DNA from: an uncultured virus (IMG/VR IMGVR_UViG_3300005340_000005)
Taxonomy: Duplodnaviria > Heunggongvirae > Uroviricota > Caudoviricetes
DNA: 64,000 nucleotides
Direction: 5' to 3' (one strand)
IMG/VR virus record: IMGVR_UViG_3300005340_000005
Of this stretch, positions 2,118 through 61,344 are shown piece by piece. Every line of letters starts with the position of its first letter. Within the stretch, counting starts at the first letter, position 1. A program made the position numbers and the translations under genes. The notes under the pieces were generated by a model, which ran no database searches, was not told the origin of the DNA, and saw only the letters and a program-made list of their open reading frames with translations.

Positions 2118-3577
2118 ACATCGCAAGCGTTCTCTCCAGTCTTGGCCGCGTCCGGCAACGGCCGGGCGTTGTTCCCGACGATGAGACAGACAACCTGCCG
2201 TCGTACTCTCAGCCTCAGCCGGTGGACGCTGCTTCCGCTCGCGTTGCTTCGAGTGCTGGTATTCCAACTGCGCCAGACCTGACCCCTCAAGCTGCATTCA
2301 ATCGGTCAATGACCCGTGTTCAGGGAACGCCTGCTCCTGATCCATTCGCAACGCGCGTGTCCCCGGCGCCGGCAGTTGTTGCGCCGACAGCTGGCCAGGT
2401 CGATGGGCACGTTGCACAAGAACGCGTCCCCAGCTACGAAGACATTCCGATGCCGCCCAAAGCGCCGGAGCTCGCCGACGTAAAGCCTTCGACTCCGATG
2501 CCGACGCGCGAGATGCACCACGGCGGTGTAGGTTCGCGATTGAAAGACGCGGCGAAGTTCGGACTGCGCAATCTCCTTCTCTCGGGCTTGAATCCAATCT
2601 CCGCACTAGGCGCTTTCACCGGTGCAATGGTGAATCCGCAAGCTGAACACGATCAGAAATACAACCGGGAGATGGCAACTTGGGAGCCTCGAGCGCAGGC
2701 TGAGATGAGCGTGATCGAGCAGGCAAACAAGGGGAAGATTCAACAGGGCGCGGCGCAGAATCAGTACTACGACAATCTGACCGGGCGAGAGAAGCTCATC
2801 GACTCTCGGGTTGCCAGAACGCAGCGCGAACAGGATCGAGCGACTACCGCAGGAGAACGTGTCGCGACCCGTCAGGATACTGAAGCGCAACGCAAGCATG
2901 AGCAGGCCAAGGATCACGTAACGTTCAATGCGGCGCACGGTCTGCCGAATGACCCCGCGATCGTGAAGGGGACTGTGTACGAGAGCCTCGGGGGGAAGAC
3001 GATCTCGCCTGATAAGGTGCCTCATTTTGAAGCTGGCGGCCGGCTGATGTATGACCCGAACACGAAGGCGCTTGTTCCTTCGCCTGGCGCCGAGAATTTG
3101 CCGCCTGACTCCGGAGCCGCGGGGCGCGAGCAGTCCGAACGGCATTTCCAGGCCACACAAAGCCGCCAGGATCTGAAGGACGCGGAAGCGCAAGATGAGA
3201 AAGCCAAGAGTCTTGCATTGAAGTACAACGAGACTCGAGCCAAACACGCGCAAGCCAGCAAGGAATATGGCGAGATGATGACCGAGATCGGCAACCCCTC
3301 GGGTAAGGACACGAAGGGTAAGCCCCTGCCGGTGTGGAAGGGCAAAGTGATCAGCGAGGCCGATGCCAAAGAAAGGCAGATGGAAGCCGACAGGCTCGAA
3401 GAAGAACTGAGCGGCATCAAGCAGGTGGCTGGCGGACATCCAAGTCTTGAGTTTGATGACACTGGGGCTGTGAAGTTCAAGCCTCGCGCGAGTCAGTTCA
3501 CCAGTCCAGCCGCAAACTCGACCGCTGGGTCGAGAGTCGGCGGAACGAAGAAAAAGAACAGCGGATTACTCGATTGA
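2114..3577 (+). CDS. putative internal virion/ejection protein (487 aa)
   Basis: Pro/Ala-rich N-terminus, Gly-rich hydrophobic segment, Q/E/K-rich helices; shares motifs with the giant protein. Confidence 0.55.
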   Translation: MNIASVLSSLGRVRQRPGVVPDDETDNLPSYSQPQPVDAASARVASSAGIPTAPDLTPQAAFNRSMTRVQGTPAPDPFATRVSPAPAVVAPTAGQVDGHVAQERVPSYEDIPMPPKAPELADVKPSTPMPTREMHHGGVGSRLKDAAKFGLRNLLLSGLNPISALGAFTGAMVNPQAEHDQKYNREMATWEPRAQAEMSVIEQANKGKIQQGAAQNQYYDNLTGREKLIDSRVARTQREQDRATTAGERVATRQDTEAQRKHEQAKDHVTFNAAHGLPNDPAIVKGTVYESLGGKTISPDKVPHFEAGGRLMYDPNTKALVPSPGAENLPPDSGAAGREQSERHFQATQSRQDLKDAEAQDEKAKSLALKYNETRAKHAQASKEYGEMMTEIGNPSGKDTKGKPLPVWKGKVISEADAKERQMEADRLEEELSGIKQVAGGHPSLEFDDTGAVKFKPRASQFTSPAANSTAGSRVGGTKKKNSGLLD

Positions 3578-3957
3578 AAGTTGATGCTCAAATCATCATC
3601 ACTGCTCTCGGCAAAGGCTACGGTCGAGGCCGGCGCATCGAAGCCAAGTGGGTTGGTGGCCGGATCGCTCCTATCAATCGCGACCTCACCGCGATTCGAA
3701 TCTACAAACACAGTCCCAACCTGATTGAACGCCTCGATGGAGTCACGTTCGCCCTCGCCGGAGGACGATTATTTCTCGTCGACGAAGACGAGGTTGCCTT
3801 CTATGTCGCGCAGTCCGAACGGTGGGCAACGTGCTATCGGTTGCAACGTCGAGCACTCAGGGCTATTGTTTCAGTCGTACGCTATCGATCCCCGCGGCTG
3901 TTCGCCTGGCTGCACTCTCGACTTCTCCAACCCCGCCTGATACCCGTTTCCCGATGA
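3574..3957 (+). CDS. hypothetical protein
   Basis: TTG start overlaps the upstream stop; fills the gap between genes. Confidence 0.5.
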   Translation: MKVDAQIIITALGKGYGRGRRIEAKWVGGRIAPINRDLTAIRIYKHSPNLIERLDGVTFALAGGRLFLVDEDEVAFYVAQSERWATCYRLQRRALRAIVSVVRYRSPRLFAWLHSRLLQPRLIPVSR

Positions 3958-3963
3958 GCAAGC

Positions 3964-6900
3964 ATGGCCTTCAGCGCCTACGATGATCCGGAAGAACCCG
4001 ATTCCCCGCCTGCTAATACCGGCGTTGCCTTCACTCGCGTTAAACCAAACCTTAAAACCCCAGAGGGCCGCCAGCAATTTCTCGTAGACGAATCCATCCG
4101 CCAGAAGGTAGACCCGGCGTTTACGGGCGCGATCTTCAAGACTGAGAGCGGTCGCAATCTGAACCCGACAGCCCGGTCTCCGGTCGGGGCTCGAGGCGCT
4201 GCGCAGATAATGCCTGGCACCGCCGTTCGTATCGCGCGTGCGTTGAAGACTACTCCCGACAAGGTGCTCAACGATCCTGAAACGAATATGCGCGGCGGCG
4301 TGTACGAGCTTCATCGCCTGCTCGTCAACAATCAGCATCATCCTGACCCGAAGGCGGCGGCGGCCGTCGGCTACAACGCGGGCGAAGGTGCGATCCCGAA
4401 GTACAACCCGAAGACCGGCCGTCATCCGTATCCTGAAACGAACAACTACGTCGCGAAGGTGAAACAGGAGGATGCTCGCCTTGCGCCGAAACTATCGAGT
4501 TATGTACAGACGTATCAGCAGAGAGTGAGGACCCAGAATGGCACAGTACGATCCAGTAGTAGTGGAGGAAATGATACTCAGCGATCAACGCCGGGAATGC
4601 CGGGAAGTAATCAACCTCAACCGGGAGATCCGACTTCGACAACAGCACAGTCTCGGCCGGATGCTCCTGCGCAAACGCCTTTCCAACCTCTCAACTTCCC
4701 TTCCCCCGCGATCGAGCGAGGCGGATTCTTCAAGGGTGCCGATACTCCACAATCTGACCCGCGAGCAGGAGGACCGGCTTCTGGAACTGCTCAACCTCCG
4801 ATCTCCGTTGACCTACGAGGAGCGCAAAGCGGAACTCCGCAAGCTTCTGGGGCCTTTGCCCGAGTAGGCGGACCGCCCCCGCCAGAGGTCAAGCGAGCAG
4901 CGCTCGAAAGCGAGGCCGCCAATGGAACTGGCGCGCTGCGTCGCGATGCCAAAGGCGCGCCTCAAACTTGGGATGGCTACCCGGCGATCAAGAATGCTGA
5001 CGGCTCCATCACAACCGAACGCTCAATCACGATCACTGATCCGAGAGTCAACGGCGGGAAGCCGACAAACATTCCTTCGGTCTGGCAAGGCAAGCAGCTT
5101 TCGCAAGAGGATGCGATCGCGCAAGCCGCCGGATCGAAGCAGCCGTTCGCAGCGTTCGACTCGATCGATGAGGCGGTGAAGGCAGCAGAGGGACGTTCAG
5201 CGCAGAAAGGGAGGGAGCTTGACCAAACCAACCCTCCGCGACCTGTCGAAGGCGCTCAAGGATCCGTCGTTCCGCCCGTTCGAAGCGGGGCGCGGGCTGG
5301 AAGAAAACCTGCGGCTGTATCTCCAGCGCAAGCGCAGCTCCCTCTCCTCGACCTCACCCCAGAGGAAACAGCCGACGTCACTCGACGAGCAACCGCAGAA
5401 GGAGTGGCCCCGGAAGAGGCGCTGAAGTACGCGGCCGAGGAGAAGAAGGCAAAGGGCGCTCTCGCTCCCGTGAGTGCAGCAGGCCCACAGGTGACCGATG
5501 TGCCCGATCAGGCGGATGGACACGTCGCGCAGCACGTCGATCAAGTAGTCGCGCCAAAGCAATCAGGTGGCGATGGTTTCAGGATCAACGTCAAAGAATT
5601 TCAGTCTGCCGGCAAGGCCCCCACGATTCAGGATGTCAGCACGAAGATCGCCGAACGGATGGGATTCACTCCAGAAGAGGCGCAGGCCTACACCGAAGCG
5701 ACTGGTAAGAATCCGTTCTTTGAGTTGAATCCGGAATACGACGAGCCGACGGCAATGGCAAAGATGATTGGCCGCGCCGACGAAACCGGAGACGTAGCAA
5801 TCCCAGCCATGGCGCCGGACGTTGATGCTCGGGCGAAGTCCTGGCTGACTGAGTATCGAGCGAAGCAGGTTAAGCCTGCTCTGGCCGGACCTGCTACTCC
5901 ACCCGAAGAATCCATCGAAGGCCCACTTGAAGTTCCCGAACGCGCTTACGAGCTGCAGCATCCAGAGGAATCAGAAGACGCGCTCGATAAGCTGGAGAGC
6001 GGAATCAACACCGGTATCAAGGGCATCCGAACGTTTCTCAGTGAGCCAATGGCAACCGTCGGGAGCCTGATGAATGCTCCACAGGCGCTCACGAAAGCCA
6101 CTACTCCTGAAATGCAGCGCATAGCCGCTGAGCAATCGCAGGTTGACGCCGAGATGAAGCAGCTGCAGTCAAAGATGATACAGGCCGACGTCCAGCGCGG
6201 CGGGCCGGGAGATCGACCCGCGTCGCCCGATCCGATGATGGAAGGGCCGGATGCGGACCGCTATCGCGAACTGCAGGCGAAGCGCGATCAACTAACCGGA
6301 CAACTGGAAGCTGCCTCGCGTCCCGAGAACGGCATTGGTAATCGCGTTCTTCAGGGCGCCCAGAATATCGAGGAGCGGGGACTTCAGCCGGGACTCGCGA
6401 AAGACATAGTGAAGGGCGCAGGCGGCGCGGCGACAGCGTTGGGCGTGGGTATGGCGGCGGGCCCATATGCCGCCCCTGTCTTGGGCGGAATGCACACGCT
6501 CGAGCGGATCGGCCAAGGTGCGCCGACTGGTAAGGCGATCGGCGAAGGCATCGTTTCTGCCGGCAGCATGGGGGCAATGAGCGGCGCGGCCGGTGCGATA
6601 GATAAAACAGCGCTCAGCTACTTCTCGAAGCTCGCGGCTCGATCGCTGGCCAATACAGCAATCGGACTCGGGTCGCAAATGGTCGAGGGTGGCGACGTCG
6701 ATCTGAAGACGCCGGAGGGACGACGGGCATTTCTCACTGGCCGCATCTTCGACGTTGGGTGGGCGATCGCGCATTCCCCTGCGGGTCATGGGCTCAGCGA
6801 AAAGGAAATTGCAGAGAAAGCTCACGATCAAGTAGCCCGGGAGCTTCAAGGAGAACCCCATGCCGAAACAATACGAAGCGATAAAAGAGTCGTATCTCAA

Positions 6901-9900
6901 CCAGGGCGACTCGGAGAAGGAAGCGAAGTCAAAGGCGGCGGCGACGTTCATAGCGAAGGGCAAGGGAGGAAGCCGGTCGAGCCGGGCCAGGTCTCTACAC
7001 GCGGACCAGCCAGACCCAAAGAAACACCAGGCGGCGTATCAGCGGGTGAAGCCAAAGAAGTAGGACTTCAACCGGGCGACATCGTTAGTCGTCCCGGACT
7101 CTCGCACGGCCAGCCAATGACGGTCGAGTCGGTCGAGGGCAACACGGTGATGATCAGGCGCGCCGATGGAAAAGGCAGGGTGGTGTCCGCACCGGCCAAC
7201 AGGTTGAACGTCGTCACTAGGGTCGAGCCGTTACCTACGGTCGCGACAGAGACCGTGACAGCTTCGAACGTCGCACCGGAGCCAACCGTTACAACCGCTC
7301 CACCTGCGCGTGACAGAACGGATGACATCGAGAACCGGGCGGCTGACACCCTTCCTGTCGGTAAAACTCCTGAGGTGCCAAGCGGTGGGCAGCCTACGGA
7401 GCCTCAGCCCCCCGCGATACCTGAGCGTCGAGGAGTTGATCGTCGCACAGGCGATCAGGGGCCGCCGCGAGAGGGGGAGAGGCGCGGGCTATTTCGCCGG
7501 ATGCGGGATCGTGCGGGCGATCTGATTGCGCCTGAGAACGCCGCGATTCGAGAGGCGGCAAAACAGGAAGCGAGAACGGACGCTCTGACCGGAGTCGGGA
7601 ATCAGCGAGCGTGGCAGGATGTTCGCGAAAGCGTCGATGCCGACCCTGATCGCGCTATCGTTCACGGCGACTTGGACAACTTCAAGATCGTCAACGACAC
7701 GCATCCCGATAAGTACAGGGCTGGCGATAAAGCTCTCGCTGCCGCATTCGGCCAGGCTCAAAAGATCGCAACAGAGATCGACCCGACCGCGAAAGTCTAC
7801 CGCTCTGGTATCGGCGACGAAATGACCATCGATTCAGCGGCGGGTAAGGAAGCCGAGATCGCAAAGGCGATCAACGAAGGTGTCCGCGTCAAAATCGGCG
7901 AAGGGTTCGACGATGTAACGGTGTCCACCGGTCACGGGAAGACTTACGACGAAGCCACGGTCGCGATGGGTAAGAATAAGACTGCTGGCAAGGAGGCCCG
8001 CGCAGCTGCAAAGGCTGACGCTGAGCCCGGTAAGGTTCACAAGTTCAGTTCAACGCAGGTTGATCTTCCAAAGGAGCAAGCCGGACCGGTCCTCGATATG
8101 GGGCGCTCGATTCCGGACGCCGAACTCGCGGGCGACGGTCGAGAAACTACTCCGCACATCACCGTCAAATATGGACTCCACACCGCAGATTCCGAGAAGG
8201 TAAGAGCCGCTCTCGCTAACGCTGCACCGATCACGGCGACGATAGGAAAGACCTCCGCCTTCAAGGGCGTCGAGAACGGAACTGCCGATGCGGTGATCGC
8301 CGAGGTTGACAGTCCTGATCTTCATCGACTGAACAAGATCATCGCCGATGCTCTGCCGCATACCGACACTCACCCGGAGTACAAGCCACACGTGACAGTT
8401 GCGTACGTGAAGCCGGGGCTCGGCGAAAAGTACTCCGGCCGGAACGATCTCGAAGGCACGAAGATCACGCTCAAAGAAATCACATTCAGCAACAAGGATG
8501 GCGGGACGACAACAATTCCGCTGGGTGAAAAGACCGAACCTGCCGAGCCTCATCATTCAACCTTCCAACCTCGCGACGAGGGCGGTCACTTCGATGGTCC
8601 GCCTCGCGGTCCTGAGCGTCGACAAACTCTTTACGATCGACTGGCAGCCTCTCGACAAACCGAGCATCACATCCCTGAGACTCCAACGGCCGATGAACAC
8701 GCGGGACTATTCCAGGCGAGCGGCCTGAGTACTGTTGAGACCGATCGCGTTCGCGCCAAGTATGAGGACCTGAAGAAGCGCGGCGAATCTGTTGAGGATT
8801 ACCTGCGTCAGGGCGGTCTGTTTGGGGATGAGTTAAGCGAACCACAGCAACAGCTACTAAGGGAGATGGCGGCACCGAAGAGCAGGCGAGGGTCGGCTGC
8901 GGAGCAAGGCGCGCTGTTTGATGCGGCGCCAACGGTTGAGAGTCGAACGGCGGCCAAGGCGGAGCCCGTTGAGCGTGCGAAGTCTCCGCTGGAGATCGCT
9001 GGAGAGAAGGCAGAAGATCCCGGCTATGAAGAGGACTACCAGGAGTTCTTGGCTCTTCACAGTAAAGGGAGCAAGGCCCGGCTGAACGCCGAAGACTGGA
9101 AGCGCGCGCAGCATCTCCATAAACAACTCGGCCTCGACCAGCCCGATACCCGGCCTTTCAGCGAACTACTAACGGTTCCTAAGAGCCAAGCTGAGCGGTC
9201 TGGGAACAAAGAGGGGCTCTTCCAAGCCGATACCGAAGAGGGCCACCGCATTATGCGCGAGGTCGTTGACGACTTCCATAAGGAAGGCATTCGAGACTTT
9301 CGCGAAGCTGCTCGAAAGTTCCGCGAAGAGTTTGGGCCAGCCAACGAGTATTCCAAGATGTTCGAGCAGGCCTGGGACGCTCACGAGGGAGTTAAGAAGC
9401 GCGGGCGCCTGACCTACGATCGGGCAATGGAGGAACCCGCGGCGAGAGGCAAGCGCGCCGTCGAGGATATGACCCTGAGCCAATACGTGCGACGCGAAGG
9501 CGGCCTGAACCCTAACGAGTCCGACGAGGTACGAGAGCTTGTAGGTCAGAAGCAGTCGGGCACCTCCGGGCTGATGAATGAGAATCAGAAGACGAAGATT
9601 CACGAGCTGAAGGCGCAGGCCGAAGCCGAAGGGTTTGTCCAGGAGGGGATGACTGATCACGAGTTCATCCAGGCAGTGGCCGATGATGCGCTCGGGCGCA
9701 AGGTCAGCAGTCATCCCGGGAAGCAGGAGCGCGACGCCGATGCCGAGTGGGAACAAACGAAACAGGATGAGTTCGCGAAGGACTCCGATCACTCCGTTAT
9801 GAGTGCCGCATTTGACAAACCCAACGATCCCGCGTATAAGGAATGGACAGGTGCTTTCGAATCGCTGAACAAGACAGGGAGTGACGAGGATGCTCAATTC

Positions 9901-57369: not shown

Positions 57370-57767
57370 AAGAGCGGCCAACGGGAATCATTCGAACGCT
57401 GCCTTACTTCGGCGCCGGTGGCACTGGCGACGAGGCGACAGACGCACGTGCTCGCGCGTATCGCCGGATGATGCGCGCCTTCAAAGAGATGGAGAGCGGA
57501 GACGGCAAGTACGTCCTTATCGCGTTCGGACAGAAGCCGACCGTTGAGGTCCTGCATTGCTACATTCTGGTGGGCGGCGAGATTCGAGTCCGCGCGAACA
57601 TCGCAGGCTGGGAGCCAGGTGACTCGATCGCAGGATTGCATTGTTGGGATGACACGACGCGACATCCGAAGTGGCTTGCGGTGTTGACCGGTCCGGTGGT
57701 CTGGCCTGACGAGCCGGTGAAGAGACGCGGGTTCCAAGGGTTCAGATACACGGAGGAGCTGTTCTGA
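57366..57767 (+). CDS. hypothetical protein
   Basis: GTGA overlap; RGFQGFRY C-terminus. Confidence 0.65.
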   Translation: MKERPTGIIRTLPYFGAGGTGDEATDARARAYRRMMRAFKEMESGDGKYVLIAFGQKPTVEVLHCYILVGGEIRVRANIAGWEPGDSIAGLHCWDDTTRHPKWLAVLTGPVVWPDEPVKRRGFQGFRYTEELF

Positions 57768-58135
57768 TGCCACGCAATATGAGCTTCTCCAAAACTACTC
57801 CACAGGTTCGCGCCCGCACAAAAACGGTCACTCGGCGCACCGGTTGGTGGTTCCTGAAGCCTGGCGAAATCGTGAACGCGATCGAGAAGGGGCAGGGGCT
57901 CAAGAAGGGCGAGGAGGTAGTTGTCATCTGTCAGATTCGTATCGTCAGCACGCGGCCTGAGCCTCTGTCTCGCCTCATAAAAGACACTGCGTATGGATTC
58001 GGCGAAACCACTAAGGAGGGATTCAAGGACCATCCTGAATTGCAGTGGCCCGGGGTCTTCGCTGAGTTCTTCTGCGCCCTCAACGGGTGCGAGTTGGATA
58101 CAGAAGTCAACCGGATCGAGTTTGAATATGTCTGA
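57767..58135 (+). CDS. ASCH/PUA-like protein
   Basis: MSF..T..Q...KTVTRR, EGF, RIEFEY. Confidence 0.75.
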   Translation: MPRNMSFSKTTPQVRARTKTVTRRTGWWFLKPGEIVNAIEKGQGLKKGEEVVVICQIRIVSTRPEPLSRLIKDTAYGFGETTKEGFKDHPELQWPGVFAEFFCALNGCELDTEVNRIEFEYV

Positions 58136-59690
58136 CAAATCAGCAATCGAATGGACCGAGGCGACCTGGAATCCGACGCGCGGATGCTCGATGGTCTCGC
58201 CGGGCTGCACGAACTGTTATGCCATGAAGCAGGCGCACCGCTTCTCTGGCGACAGCAGGACTACGAAGGCGGGCACGCGCACTGGGCCTCAGGCGTACTC
58301 GGGGCTCACTCGCTTGACCAGCAACGGGCCTGTTTGGACGGGCGAGGTCCGCCTTGTCGAGGCAAAGCTAGAAGTACCACTGCGTTGGAAGCGGCCGCGC
58401 CGAATCTTTGTCAACTCGATGAGCGACCTGTTCCACGAAAGACTGAGCGACGAGCAGATTGATCGAGTCTTCGCCGTGATGGCGCTCTGCCCGCAGCATA
58501 CCTTTCAAGTGCTCACTAAGCGCGCAGAGAGGATGCGCGACTACCTCTGCAGCCGCGATACCTGGATTCGTCTGACCGAGCGGATCTTCAGAACCGTCTC
58601 GAAGTACAAGCTCGATGAATTCCTTCTTCTGCAATGCACCTTCGAACAAGACGAGCGATCCTTTGTCAACATACCGATTTCCAACGCTTGGCTCGGCGTC
58701 TCCGTTGAAGACCAGAAGACCGCAGACGAGAGAATCCCCTGGCTCCTCAAGACTCCTGCCGCTGTTCGGTGGGTGAGCGCGGAACCTTTACTCTCGTCCG
58801 TGGATCTGTCAGAATATCTCAAAGGACACACACCGAATGACAAAGGACGATCAGGCATTCTTGGCGCTGTTGGCGATCGGCGTATTCTCGATAGACGACA
58901 AGGGGCGTATCTGGCGACACCGGCGGCTGATAGCCGGGAGCAAAATCGGGTCGCCCCCGTTTTGGAAGGATTTGCCCAAGAAACGCCGGGCGGAAACCAG
59001 CAGTTCCGGGAAGAGGCGGGAGAACTCCAGCATTTATCTACGAGTGATGTTCACGACTGTCGGGGACAAGCGATGGAGCGTGGATGCGCATCGGGTTGTC
59101 TGGATGACAGCCAACCAAAAGGATATTCCGCCAGCAATGGAACCCAACCACAAAAACGGGAACGGAGCCGACAACAGACCGGAGAATCTCGAACTCCTGA
59201 CCCATCCGCAGAACACTCTCCACGCGATCCACGAATTGGGCAAGATCGCTCGACCTCGGAAGATGAACGGCGACAAGCTGACACCCGCTCAAGTGTTAGA
59301 GGTTCGCAGTCTCTGCGACCAGAAGGCGATGGCGCGGAGCGAGATAGCGAAGCTGTACGGTCTGAGTCTCAATTCAATCGTCAACATAGCCAACCGCAAG
59401 ACCTGGAAATATATCCCCGAGTTGACTGGGTAATAATCGGCGGAGAATCCGGACCTCATTCCAGACCCTTCGATGTCCAGTGGGCGCGAGACACCATCGC
59501 GCAATTCCGAGCCGCCGGCGTGCCCGTGTTTGTGAAGCAAATGGGCAGCAAGCCAACTACCGACCACCGGACGCGACCCAAAGACGAAGGAGCTCACTGG
59601 ACGACTCTTCTCAAAGACAAGAAGGGCGGCAACCCGGATGAATGGCCAGCGGATCTACGCGTCCGCGAATTTCCGGAGGTCGCAAAGTGA
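58128..59690 (+). CDS. DUF5131 (Gp37/Gp68-like) protein with a ~200-aa insertion
   Basis: IEWTEATWNPTRGC..VSPGCTNCYA, FVNSMSDLFH, LTKR, SAEPLL, DWVIIGGESG, FVKQMG. Confidence 0.88.
   Translation: MSDKSAIEWTEATWNPTRGCSMVSPGCTNCYAMKQAHRFSGDSRTTKAGTRTGPQAYSGLTRLTSNGPVWTGEVRLVEAKLEVPLRWKRPRRIFVNSMSDLFHERLSDEQIDRVFAVMALCPQHTFQVLTKRAERMRDYLCSRDTWIRLTERIFRTVSKYKLDEFLLLQCTFEQDERSFVNIPISNAWLGVSVEDQKTADERIPWLLKTPAAVRWVSAEPLLSSVDLSEYLKGHTPNDKGRSGILGAVGDRRILDRRQGAYLATPAADSREQNRVAPVLEGFAQETPGGNQQFREEAGELQHLSTSDVHDCRGQAMERGCASGCLDDSQPKGYSASNGTQPQKRERSRQQTGESRTPDPSAEHSPRDPRIGQDRSTSEDERRQADTRSSVRGSQSLRPEGDGAERDSEAVRSESQFNRQHSQPQDLEIYPRVDWVIIGGESGPHSRPFDVQWARDTIAQFRAAGVPVFVKQMGSKPTTDHRTRPKDEGAHWTTLLKDKKGGNPDEWPADLRVREFPEVAK
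58837..59433 (+). CDS. HNH homing endonuclease nested in the +1 frame of the DUF5131 gene
   Basis: AHRVVW...NHKNGNGADNRPENLE...N..H; C-terminal HTH (KLT..QV.E...EIAKLYG......I...TWKYI); AAAGGA upstream. Confidence 0.88.
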   Translation: MTKDDQAFLALLAIGVFSIDDKGRIWRHRRLIAGSKIGSPPFWKDLPKKRRAETSSSGKRRENSSIYLRVMFTTVGDKRWSVDAHRVVWMTANQKDIPPAMEPNHKNGNGADNRPENLELLTHPQNTLHAIHELGKIARPRKMNGDKLTPAQVLEVRSLCDQKAMARSEIAKLYGLSLNSIVNIANRKTWKYIPELTG

Positions 59691-60142
59691 ACCACAAACA
59701 ACGTGTGGCGCTCGAGAATCACTGCCGCTTCGCTTTTGAGACGATGAACCCCGCGTTCCATCACCTGAGCGACGAAGGCTACAGTCTGATCATCACCGTC
59801 AATTCCGGTTATGAGTGAATCGAAGAAGGTTACGGCGGGCCAGTTTGGCACGCGAGCGCATCGAGCGGTTTGATCCAGATTCACAGTCGAATTCTCAGAG
59901 GCGTTGTCCATCACGCTCTGGAGGGTGTGGGCCTTCCACTATTGGGCGAGTGGGAAGAATGGACGGGCAAAGCATTCCATCTTCGTCGACGGCTTCGGCG
60001 CACGGAGGAAGAGATCATCGGTGCTGCGTGCGACTTGAGAGGAACTCCTGAAGCAAAGAGGCGCTATCAAGCTTCACTTTGGTTCTTGCCACCAGCCGGG
60101 TTGGAAGTGGCACTGCAAGAAATGTCGGAGGTCGCACGTTGA
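59687..60142 (+). pseudogene. hypothetical gene interrupted by an in-frame TGA at 59816-59818
   Basis: GTG start (GGAGG SD, GTGA overlap) is in frame with the 59870-60142 ORF across a single TGA. Confidence 0.55.
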
Positions 60143-61344
60143 CCAAGCAAGGAAACATCTTCGACGACGTCCGAATGAAGCTCCCAGAGGCGATCGACCT
60201 TACTGTCGAGTCACTCAAGGCCTATGGTCTGAAGTATCGGCACTGGGCCATGGCCTTCTCTGGCGGCAAGGACTCGTCGGCGCTGGTTTCCTTGGTTGCT
60301 GTCCTGATCGAACAGGAACGGATTCCCGCTCCCGAAAGCCTCACGGTCTTCTACGCGGACACGCGCCAGGAGCTGCCACCGCTCTGGGTCTCAGCGATGG
60401 GCATTATGGACGCCCTGGGCGAGCGCGGCATTGAGACTCACGTCGTTCTGCCTCCGATGGACAAACGCTATTTCGTGTACATCCTCGGTCGAGGAGTTCC
60501 TCCACCAAACAACAACACGCTTCGATGGTGCACGCGACAAATCAAAGTTGATCCGATGGTTGCAGCTCTACGCGGTCAACGTGAACGCGCCGGCGAGAAA
60601 CTCTTGATGCTGACCGGCGTTCGAGTCGGAGAGTCGGCCGCTCGAGATCAGAGGATCGCTCTCTCGTGCTCGAGAGACGGCGGCGAATGTGGGCAAGGTT
60701 GGTTTCAACAGAGCACACCTGAAAGCGTCGCAGATACATTGGCGCCGCTTCTTCACTGGAGAGTGTGTCACGTCTGGGCGTGGCTGGCCTCGCACGCACC
60801 GCTTGAAGGCTTCCCGACTCGGACAGTGGCGACGGTATACGGCGGCGATGAAGCAGAAGAGATGAACGCGCGGACAGGTTGCATCGGTTGTCCGCTTGCA
60901 ACGAAAGACACTGCGCTTGACGCAATCCTAAAGCTACCTGAGTGGGCTTACCTCTGCCCGTTGAAGCGACTGCGGCCGCTCTACCGTGAACTAAGAGAGC
61001 CACGGTGGAGACTTCGACAGGCGGGAGCCGAGCGACTCAAGGACGGTTCTATCGCGGCCAACCCACAGAGGATGGGGCCGCTCACGATGGATGCCCGCCG
61101 GCACGGCCTATCAATTGTCCTCGGAGTTCAGGACGAGATCAACGCCGCGGCTCGGGCCACCGGTAGACCTTTAATCAGTCTCATCAACGACGAAGAGCAA
61201 TCCCGAATCGAGCAATTGATCGAAGAGAACACCTGGCCAGAGAAGTGGTCGGGTGACGAACCGGTTGCCGACGTGATGCTCGAAAAGATCTTCGGCGACG
61301 GATCTGCGCAGCCGTTGCTCGGAGAGGACTGGGGGCAGCTATGA
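60139..61344 (+). CDS. PAPS reductase-family (DndC-like) protein
   Basis: AFSGGKDS, ADT..E, RWCT..IK, GVR..ES..R, RTGCIGC; TTG start with GGAGG. Confidence 0.85.
   Translation: MTKQGNIFDDVRMKLPEAIDLTVESLKAYGLKYRHWAMAFSGGKDSSALVSLVAVLIEQERIPAPESLTVFYADTRQELPPLWVSAMGIMDALGERGIETHVVLPPMDKRYFVYILGRGVPPPNNNTLRWCTRQIKVDPMVAALRGQRERAGEKLLMLTGVRVGESAARDQRIALSCSRDGGECGQGWFQQSTPESVADTLAPLLHWRVCHVWAWLASHAPLEGFPTRTVATVYGGDEAEEMNARTGCIGCPLATKDTALDAILKLPEWAYLCPLKRLRPLYRELREPRWRLRQAGAERLKDGSIAANPQRMGPLTMDARRHGLSIVLGVQDEINAAARATGRPLISLINDEEQSRIEQLIEENTWPEKWSGDEPVADVMLEKIFGDGSAQPLLGEDWGQL

Follow-up and report, generated by a model that had tools for sequence, protein, structure and literature searches.

The window analysed here is a 64,000-nt stretch of DNA from an uncultured virus of the Caudoviricetes (IMG/VR virus record IMGVR_UViG_3300005340_000005). 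It is a temperate phage or prophage and includes genes for an integrase, a terminase and a helicase as well as a RecT/exonuclease pair. In this window a gene of the DUF5131 family (the host gene) contains an insert, and the insert carries a gene for an HNH endonuclease in another reading frame, while the DUF5131 frame stays open. The features of the locus are as follows (E, E-value; pLDDT, predicted local distance difference test score of the AlphaFold2 (AF2) model).

58128..59690, + strand: host gene DUF5131 (phage Gp37/Gp68 family), 520 aa; Pfam PF07505 in two stretches (E 4.9e-77), PHROG 2045 (E 6.9e-93)
58837..59433, + strand: nested HNH homing endonuclease gene, 198 aa, at +1 to the host frame; Pfam HNH_3 PF13392 (E 3.8e-12), PHROG 59 HNH endonuclease (E 5.9e-24)
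58827..59420, + strand: insert, host residues 234-431, ~594 nt; bounds from the alignment with insert-free homologues
58128..58826, + strand: N-terminal part of the host, residues 1-233, ending ...WVSAEPLLSSVDLSEYLKG; Pfam stretch 5-228, equal to profile positions 2-173; AF2 pLDDT mostly >90
59421..59690, + strand: C-terminal part of the host, residues 432-520, starting VDWVIIGGESGP...; second DUF5131 stretch, in the same frame as the first; AF2 pLDDT about 85-96
58821..58826, + strand: Shine-Dalgarno (SD)-like AAAGGA, 10 nt 5' of the HNH ATG
59431..59433, + strand: HNH stop codon TAA, lying within TGG-GTA-ATA, the host codons for W-V-I where the DUF5131 strand resumes

The host start consistent with the DUF5131 family is the ATG at 58128 (an in-frame ATG is also present upstream, at 57993), and the open reading frame (ORF) continues to the stop codon at 59688-59690. 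The match to the DUF5131 Pfam profile is interrupted at about position 173, and the insert lies between the strands WVSAEPLL..VDL and DWVIIGGESG of the family. Its junctions were mapped, as the preliminary description of this DNA had suggested, by alignment with insert-free homologues (15 insert-bearing and 33 insert-free DUF5131 proteins). That description had also stated that the DUF5131 ORF stays open across an insert of ~600 nt; over 58800-59440 we found 0 stops in the host frame and 14 in the third frame, and in the HNH frame its own terminal TAA and a directly following in-frame TAA. The family is matched over its full length, and the N-terminal Cys motif (C20, C27 and C30) is invariant in the alignment. 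DUF5131 appears in the list of radical SAM subgroups given in PMC9477430.

The nested gene had been described as encoding an HNH plus helix-turn-helix (HTH) endonuclease. The HNH part of this assignment holds, and the HTH-like region at the C-terminus has a weak match to HTH_7 (E 0.0063, below the cut-off). The residues H85, R86, H105, N117 and H129 are invariant in an alignment of 31 sequences of the family and are all present in the window HNH; H85, H105, N117 and H129 are the conserved H...N...H residues of the HNH_3/I-HmuI-like family. Compared with solved structures, the family profile matched PDB 1U3E, an HNH homing endonuclease, at E 9.4e-7. The SD-like AAAGGA and the termination of the nested gene within the DWVI codons were found as previously noted, and the overlap of the HNH stop with the host W-V-I codons recurs in the loci L012b, L083, L013 and L009. 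In 32 database entries, members of the family of the window HNH are annotated as proteins of their own; fusion of the N-terminus of DUF5131 with the HNH through a frameshift was rejected on this ground and because the HNH has its own SD and ATG. In a tblastn search with the window HNH, 143 of 50,697 phage records were matched, all at <60% identity. Among the matches listed (40 rows), all but two rows were free-standing HNH genes, hypothetical or unannotated, the two others carrying a nucleoside 2-deoxyribosyltransferase label and a DNA endonuclease I label; neither a close isolate relative nor a mycobacteriophage was present among them.

The openness of the host frame was compared with chance. 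In these tests the HNH protein was held fixed during synonymous shuffles and each gene's own codons were kept. Synonymous permutation of the codons of the window HNH left the host frame stop-free in 3/20000 cases (mode, 7 stops; 7-10 expected), and resampling with the codon usage of the window did so in 1/20000. Among windows of 199 codons at the same offset in the 32 long ORFs of the window, 0/1133 were open.

Relatives were then collected. A search with the full-length host protein gave, among the 120 matches listed, four read-through DUF5131 proteins (P0001, P0016, P0065 and P0066; 481-511 aa) whose alignments, insert included, span 98-100% of the query; this search is biased, since only open frames can be returned. 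The unbiased set consists of DNA retrieved by HNH similarity alone, with the host frame ignored. A metagenome search with the HNH gave the window's own contig and one further locus, L002. Against viral contigs a single-protein query found nothing and an alignment-based query was needed instead; with the 31-sequence HNH alignment (A1) as the query, 167/266 stretches were confirmed in the viral contigs (the best 80 of 167 were kept) and 30/73 among one genome per GTDB species (29 loci; the titles of the metagenome-assembled genomes name Planctomycetota, Binatia and Clostridia). Hidden Markov model (HMM) scans over the stop-to-stop pieces of the 111 loci gave 115 HNH-family matches on the + strand, and the host-type frame, which runs one base behind that of the HNH, was open across the HNH in 21 and closed in 94. 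All 21 open-frame copies sit within a larger host gene, which encodes a C5 methyltransferase in L067 and L099 and DUF5131 in the others. Apparent duplicates were removed (L005 = L006; L008, L009 and L010; L011 = L085; L014 and L015), and 13 distinct copies at the site of the window insert (site 1) were obtained: window, L002, L003, L004, L005, L007, L009, L011, L012b, L013, L015, L083 and L084. Thus the search for other DUF5131 genes with a nested HNH, proposed at the outset, yielded 12 other distinct copies. In 13/13 the HNH has one and the same location (family HMM position about 215-225) and offset (+1), and the frame-blind set, in which stops in the host frame of related genomes were sought across the insert, showed none in any of these copies. 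Their HNH proteins are 86% down to about 36% identical to that of the window (L002 ends with its contig after 137 HNH codons). In all nested loci both halves of the host are conserved in a single frame, the C-terminal DUF5131 matches having E 1e-11 to 1e-37. An SD-like motif is present at -18 to -5 of the HNH start in 10/14 nested copies vs 6.6% of background positions in the same host ORFs.

The synonymous shuffles were also applied to 15 copies one by one. No host-frame stop was observed, against a mean of 2.0-8.4 expected per locus, and the shuffles reached zero stops in 0-16/5000 cases in 13/15 copies (exceptions: L083, 411/5000; L067, 127/5000). At the +1 offset a host stop requires T at the third position of an HNH codon followed by a codon starting with AA, AG or GA. 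In the nested copies this T before AAN/AGN/GAN occurs in 0/757 positions vs 18.2% in other contexts, and in free-standing relatives it occurs in 624/3110 (20.1%). The host frame is held open by selection in all 13 distinct DUF5131 site-1 copies. The genetic code has no amino acid with T-ending codons only; every such T has a synonymous C, and the host frame can thus stay open by silent changes alone. With the host at the other offset, a stop would be inevitable wherever Met precedes I, M, T, N or K; the HNH genes of the family have on average 2.0 such places, and that of the window has 3. At the first, second and third positions of the HNH codons, nucleotides differ at rates of 0.448, 0.359 and 0.594, and in 66 pairs compared over identical columns the amino-acid identity is 0.463 for the HNH frame vs 0.239 for the host frame. 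Protein-level constraint is present in the HNH frame only.

Several loci of the survey differ from the common arrangement. The DUF5131 gene of L012 (980-3049) holds two nested HNH_3 genes, each at +1 and each crossed by an open host frame. The first occupies the common site (2190-2771); the second, immediately ahead of the WPLP..LGVS motif at about 1515-2036, lacks an ATG, and its match to the family profile does not begin until position 18. In P0116, a DUF5131 protein of 481 aa, an HNH_3 domain is present in frame at this second site, before ...WPLPNCWKGVSVEDQ, which appears to be a different non-spliced way for an HNH to occupy DUF5131. In L067 (1351-3342; nested HNH 2489-2995) and L099 (2-667; truncated by the contig start), genes for C5 cytosine DNA methyltransferases (PF00145) contain a related HNH_3+HTH gene nested at +1, again with an open host frame. 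In L032 (1210-3178) an uninterrupted DUF5131 gene is followed by a free-standing HNH gene of the same family that overlaps its 3' end, and a second HNH_3 gene lies at 3372-3914. The arrangement of L032 may be a precursor state of the nested form, and it resembles the Tiff81/Sashimi situation of PMC11855218.

In the host protein the insert occupies a position where insert-free homologues hold 1-64 residues, so that the loop is naturally variable in length. An AF2 model of the host, made with the alignment of insert-bearing and insert-free proteins, has a confident DUF5131 core (242 residues at pLDDT >=90), and residues 241-426 are the sole low-confidence segment (pLDDT <50, without secondary structure); the host-frame insert is thus predicted to be a disordered loop on a confident core. 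Its hydrophobic fraction is 0.13 vs 0.30 in the core (across the nested loci, 0.10-0.17 in the linkers vs 0.25-0.35 in the cores). The linker is hydrophilic because the second base of each host codon is the purine-rich first base of the nuclease codon, and its polarity is largely a property of the frame, since free-standing HNH relatives give 0.19 in the same frame, with 0.14 in the nested copies. Pfam gave a single chance-level match to the host-frame insert at E<=1 (Phage_B, E 0.14) and otherwise no domain. A phmmer search with the host-frame insert against 1.84 billion representatives gave only 5 matches at E<=0.001: three read-through DUF5131 proteins of 467-491 aa, a fragment of 125 aa, and a repetitive protein of 2582 aa that is probably spurious. 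So few matches are consistent with an unconstrained linker, and conservation is too poor for prevalence to be gauged in this way.

Four other explanations of the locus were weighed. The insert might be removed from the RNA by an unrecognised self-splicing or host-assisted intron, the HNH being an ordinary intron ORF; HNH genes of the I-HmuI type are classic passengers of group I introns, and the match of the family profile to PDB 1U3E is in keeping with this. The preliminary description had argued that the endonuclease fills the insert and leaves no room for a ribozyme, and this is borne out: the HNH ORF leaves just about 10 nt of the insert free on the 5' side and none on the 3' side, Rfam (57500-60500, E<=10) gave five chance-level matches and no intron family, though Rfam covers described families only, and the insert RNA folds no better than shuffled sequences (z = +0.31; 11/20 shuffles fold at least equally well). 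A group I intron was rejected on these grounds, namely the lack of a ribozyme core signal in Rfam and in the fold and the filling of the insert by the ORF. Read data are of limited help to either side. The RNA-library run X14 contains two 100%-identical contigs (58831-59019 and 59116-59337), both within the insert and neither bridging a junction, and DNA carry-over is possible; DNA contigs bridge both junctions (X7, 58713-59183 and 59352-60100; X8, 59125-59468). Four sequencing runs showed no joint that skips the insert, and the one joint reported in them (58174 to 58404, side 29) is probably from another organism. Above all, a spliced insert needs no open host frame, yet the frame is open in 13/13 copies with 0/757 dangerous T, and we consider an intron very improbable. 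Alternatively, the insert could be translated in the host frame and then removed or cut in the protein, by a non-canonical intein or by proteolysis of the loop, leaving a ligated or a two-chain DUF5131. The loop is long, exposed and predicted to be disordered, and thus would be accessible to proteases, and non-canonical phage inteins with out-of-frame endonuclease genes have been reported, according to the listing of a 2025 bioRxiv preprint. However, none of the host-frame inserts of 9 loci (0/9) matched a Hint/intein domain at E<=1, AF2 gives no folded domain in the insert, and host-frame identity is as low as stated above. The window junctions (...LKG/HTPND and ...IYPR/VDW) have neither Cys/Ser/Thr at the N-junction nor His-Asn plus a nucleophile at the C-junction, in agreement with the earlier remark that intein termini are absent. 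An intein was rejected on the lack of a Hint match and of junction residues and on the predicted disorder; removal from the protein by any route seems to us quite unlikely. A split gene (genes in pieces) was also rejected, because the host is a single continuous ORF.

It is also conceivable that the host protein is non-functional with the insert, and that its frame is kept open to avoid premature termination, polarity or mRNA decay, which would harm expression of the HNH or of downstream genes. The published methylase host of a comparable element is dispensable (PMC11855218), and in L012 an in-frame TGA lies upstream of two inserts that are still open. Against this stand the strong conservation of both host halves in the same frame at all nested loci, the 67% identity of the window host to an insert-free homologue outside the insert, and the consideration that translation of the HNH would itself already protect the RNA; we regard this explanation as unlikely. 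Finally, the open frame could be a by-product of composition or codon usage without any selection, because the GC content of 56-65% in some copies lowers the frequency of stops, and the shuffle test of L083 taken singly points the same way. But shuffles of a gene's own codons almost never reach 0 stops, 94/94 free-standing relatives are closed in the host-type frame (mean 5.9 stops per 100 codons), and the third frame of the nested copies has 4-23 stops; chance was rejected as the origin of the open frame, and a purely compositional origin is almost certainly wrong.

The distribution of the element among DUF5131 genes is patchy. The closest host relative of the window, P0002 (67% identical outside the insert), has no insert, and the insert-bearing hosts are 31-60% identical to that of the window. 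The HNH proteins of the window and L002 are 86% identical, while the nucleotide identity of the two loci is 0.20-0.48 in the N-terminal host DNA, 0.65 in a conserved flank and 0.67-0.83 over the junction and HNH. In 22/55 pairs from 11 loci, HNH identity exceeds host identity by >0.08 (for example, L003-L007, 0.87 vs 0.62; L005-L011, 0.83 vs 0.61). A host-only tree has 6 changes of insert state, of which >=3 are forced by well-supported branches (shuffled mean, 13). Directly 5' of the insert (window, 58803-58826), insert-bearing alleles share the host codons D-L-S/T-K/E-W/Y-L and the nucleotides ..GA(C/T)(C/T)TGTCA(A/G)AAT(A/G).., and insert-free homologues vary there; this shared flank may be co-converted or part of the homing site. 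As far as these comparisons go, the pattern agrees with a mixture of homing, vertical descent and loss.

From these results we infer the following course of events. A mobile homing-endonuclease gene of ~600 bp would have settled in the DUF5131 gene of a temperate phage, in the region of a surface loop and at +1 to the host frame, and would remain unspliced. Ribosomes that start at the host ATG (58128) would read through the insert to make a 520-aa DUF5131 with a normal core and a polar disordered loop of roughly 198 residues, and internal initiation at the element's SD and the ATG at 58837 would give the 198-aa I-HmuI-like HNH endonuclease. Selection would keep the host frame open without cost to the nuclease by using synonymous C for the dangerous T. 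Presumably the nuclease acts on DUF5131 alleles that lack the insert, cutting or nicking them, and repair would then copy the element in (homing). The preliminary description had arrived at a non-splicing, dual-coding element within a permissive loop, and every computational result obtained agrees with it: the mark of selection, the lack of a ribozyme or intein signal, the variable and predicted disordered loop, and the patchy distribution with an HNH more conserved than its hosts.

Some observations weigh against this course of events. Read-through translation, the absence of splicing, a working host protein, the activity of the nuclease and homing itself are all deduced from DNA. In L012 the N-terminal part of the host contains an in-frame TGA (1259-1261) at a position occupied by Gly in homologues. 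The TGA could reflect a pseudogene, a fault of the assembly or read-through, so that an open insert alone is no proof of a live host gene. The SD-like motif is missing in 4/14 nested copies (L007, L009, L015 and L084), of which L007 may have its start mis-set; at L007, 2460-2510, the usual start ATG reads ACG, and an in-frame GTG three codons upstream may be the start. The shuffle test of L083 (411/5000) is weak by itself. The identities of HNH and host correlate (r = 0.61), and much of the distribution may reflect vertical descent and loss and not active homing. The host-only tree was built quickly and contains long branches; the insert-free proteins in it were chosen as best matches to the window host, which biases them to nearest relatives. 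With these points taken into account, we still consider it probable, to a good degree of confidence, that the element is a non-splicing, dual-coded, out-of-frame homing element in a permissive loop of DUF5131.

A wider proposal can be put forward more tentatively. The design was seen in four settings, namely HNH_3 at two DUF5131 sites, HNH_3 in C5 methyltransferases (L067 and L099), an unrelated PF01844 HNH in N6/N4 methylases (phage Applejack, see below), and the free-standing relative of L032 as a possible precursor. Nesting at +1 may be a general, third lifestyle of homing endonucleases beside introns and inteins, which arose repeatedly under a rule set by the genetic code; we rate this as plausible but somewhat short of probable. 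The rule is proposed because only at +1 can silent T-to-C changes remove every host-frame stop, and there the resulting peptide is polar and disordered.

In the neighbourhood of the locus, a DndC-like gene of the PAPS-reductase family (60079-61344; PHROG 12882, E 1.1e-176) lies 390 nt downstream of DUF5131; its TIGR03183 DndC match (E 2.6e-30) is below the cut-off of that model. This neighbour hints that DUF5131 is here part of a DNA-modification module. Elsewhere in the window, an open frame of 3959 codons (3958-15834, + strand) lies upstream of a terminase-like gene.

Homing endonuclease genes are thought to persist in essential or conserved genes solely by means of self-splicing introns or inteins, and otherwise to lie in intergenic positions. 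Splicing machinery would be unnecessary for a nuclease gene overprinted on a translated loop that the host tolerates. The design is now found in an unrelated nuclease family and in a different, widespread phage gene, beyond the methylases of mycobacteriophages, and it leaves a measurable mark of selection, the lack of T before AAN/AGN/GAN. What the present analysis mainly adds is clean evidence of selection and of convergence on a single frame offset. In annotation, the nested nuclease will be overlooked by gene callers, or else the host will be listed as an oddly long protein with a low-complexity region. For engineering, the DUF5131 loop site would tolerate about 200 extra residues, and about 400 over two sites in L012.

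Among known systems, mobE in nrdA of Aeromonas phage Aeh1 reportedly splits its host gene into two ORFs whose products reassemble. It is said to resemble the window element in having an HNH gene that starts independently within the coding region of a host, with neither intron nor intein; it differs in that the host ORF of the window is continuous. I-HmuI, of the group I intron of Bacillus phage SPO1 (PDB 1U3E), shares the nuclease family, a site in a conserved phage gene and presumed homing, whereas the window insert has no ribozyme, is filled by the ORF and has a host frame open under selection, for which an intron has no need. Inteins with homing endonuclease domains are likewise inserts that are translated with the host protein and adjoin conserved host motifs. 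Unlike them, the window insert has no Hint domain or splice-junction residues, its nuclease is in another frame, and its in-frame product is predicted to be disordered.

The closest parallel is the ShiLan domain, a hidden out-of-frame HNH in the DNA methylases of mycobacteriophages (Arsenault, Gosselin & Gogarten 2025, Genes 16:178, PMC11855218). There, a 202-aa insert without stops in the host frame hides a 195-aa HNH whose stop is in the last four bases; an intron or intein is undetectable, the in-frame structure is predicted as a loop, the distribution is disjunct, and a second case of a hidden HNH is described in the insert of Pacc40 gp60. The same arrangement was annotated for gp54/gp55 of phage Applejack in its genome announcement (PMC12613952). 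In our analysis the Applejack host is an N6_N4 methylase and the nuclease belongs to PF01844/HNH_5; the offset is +1, with 0 host-frame stops and 8/10000 shuffles open. The ShiLan type and the window element share an HNH gene of ~200 codons that fills an insert of a conserved gene, a stop-free host frame, the lack of an intron or intein signature, a predicted loop, a disjunct distribution, and a nuclease stop at the 3' end of the insert. They differ in nuclease (PF01844/HNH_5 with zinc fingers vs HNH_3/I-HmuI-like with HTH), in host (N6_N4 methylase vs DUF5131) and in provenance (actinophages vs environmental phages and prophages). For ShiLan no ribosome-binding site was found, and a GTG start with leaderless initiation was proposed (PMC11855218), whereas here an SD-like motif precedes the ATG or GTG in most copies. 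The sections of that paper covered here contain no statistical test of selection on the open frame; such tests were made here. The Applejack HNH and the window HNH belong to different Pfam families and align in BLASTP at E = 13, and the likeness of the window element to ShiLan and Applejack is one of design and not of descent. Our literature search found no paper linking DUF5131 to such an element. The window element is an independent lineage of the design published in 2025 for phage methylases, a well-supported example and no new principle. What is new here is DUF5131 as the host, the unrelated HNH family and, in most copies, a clear SD.

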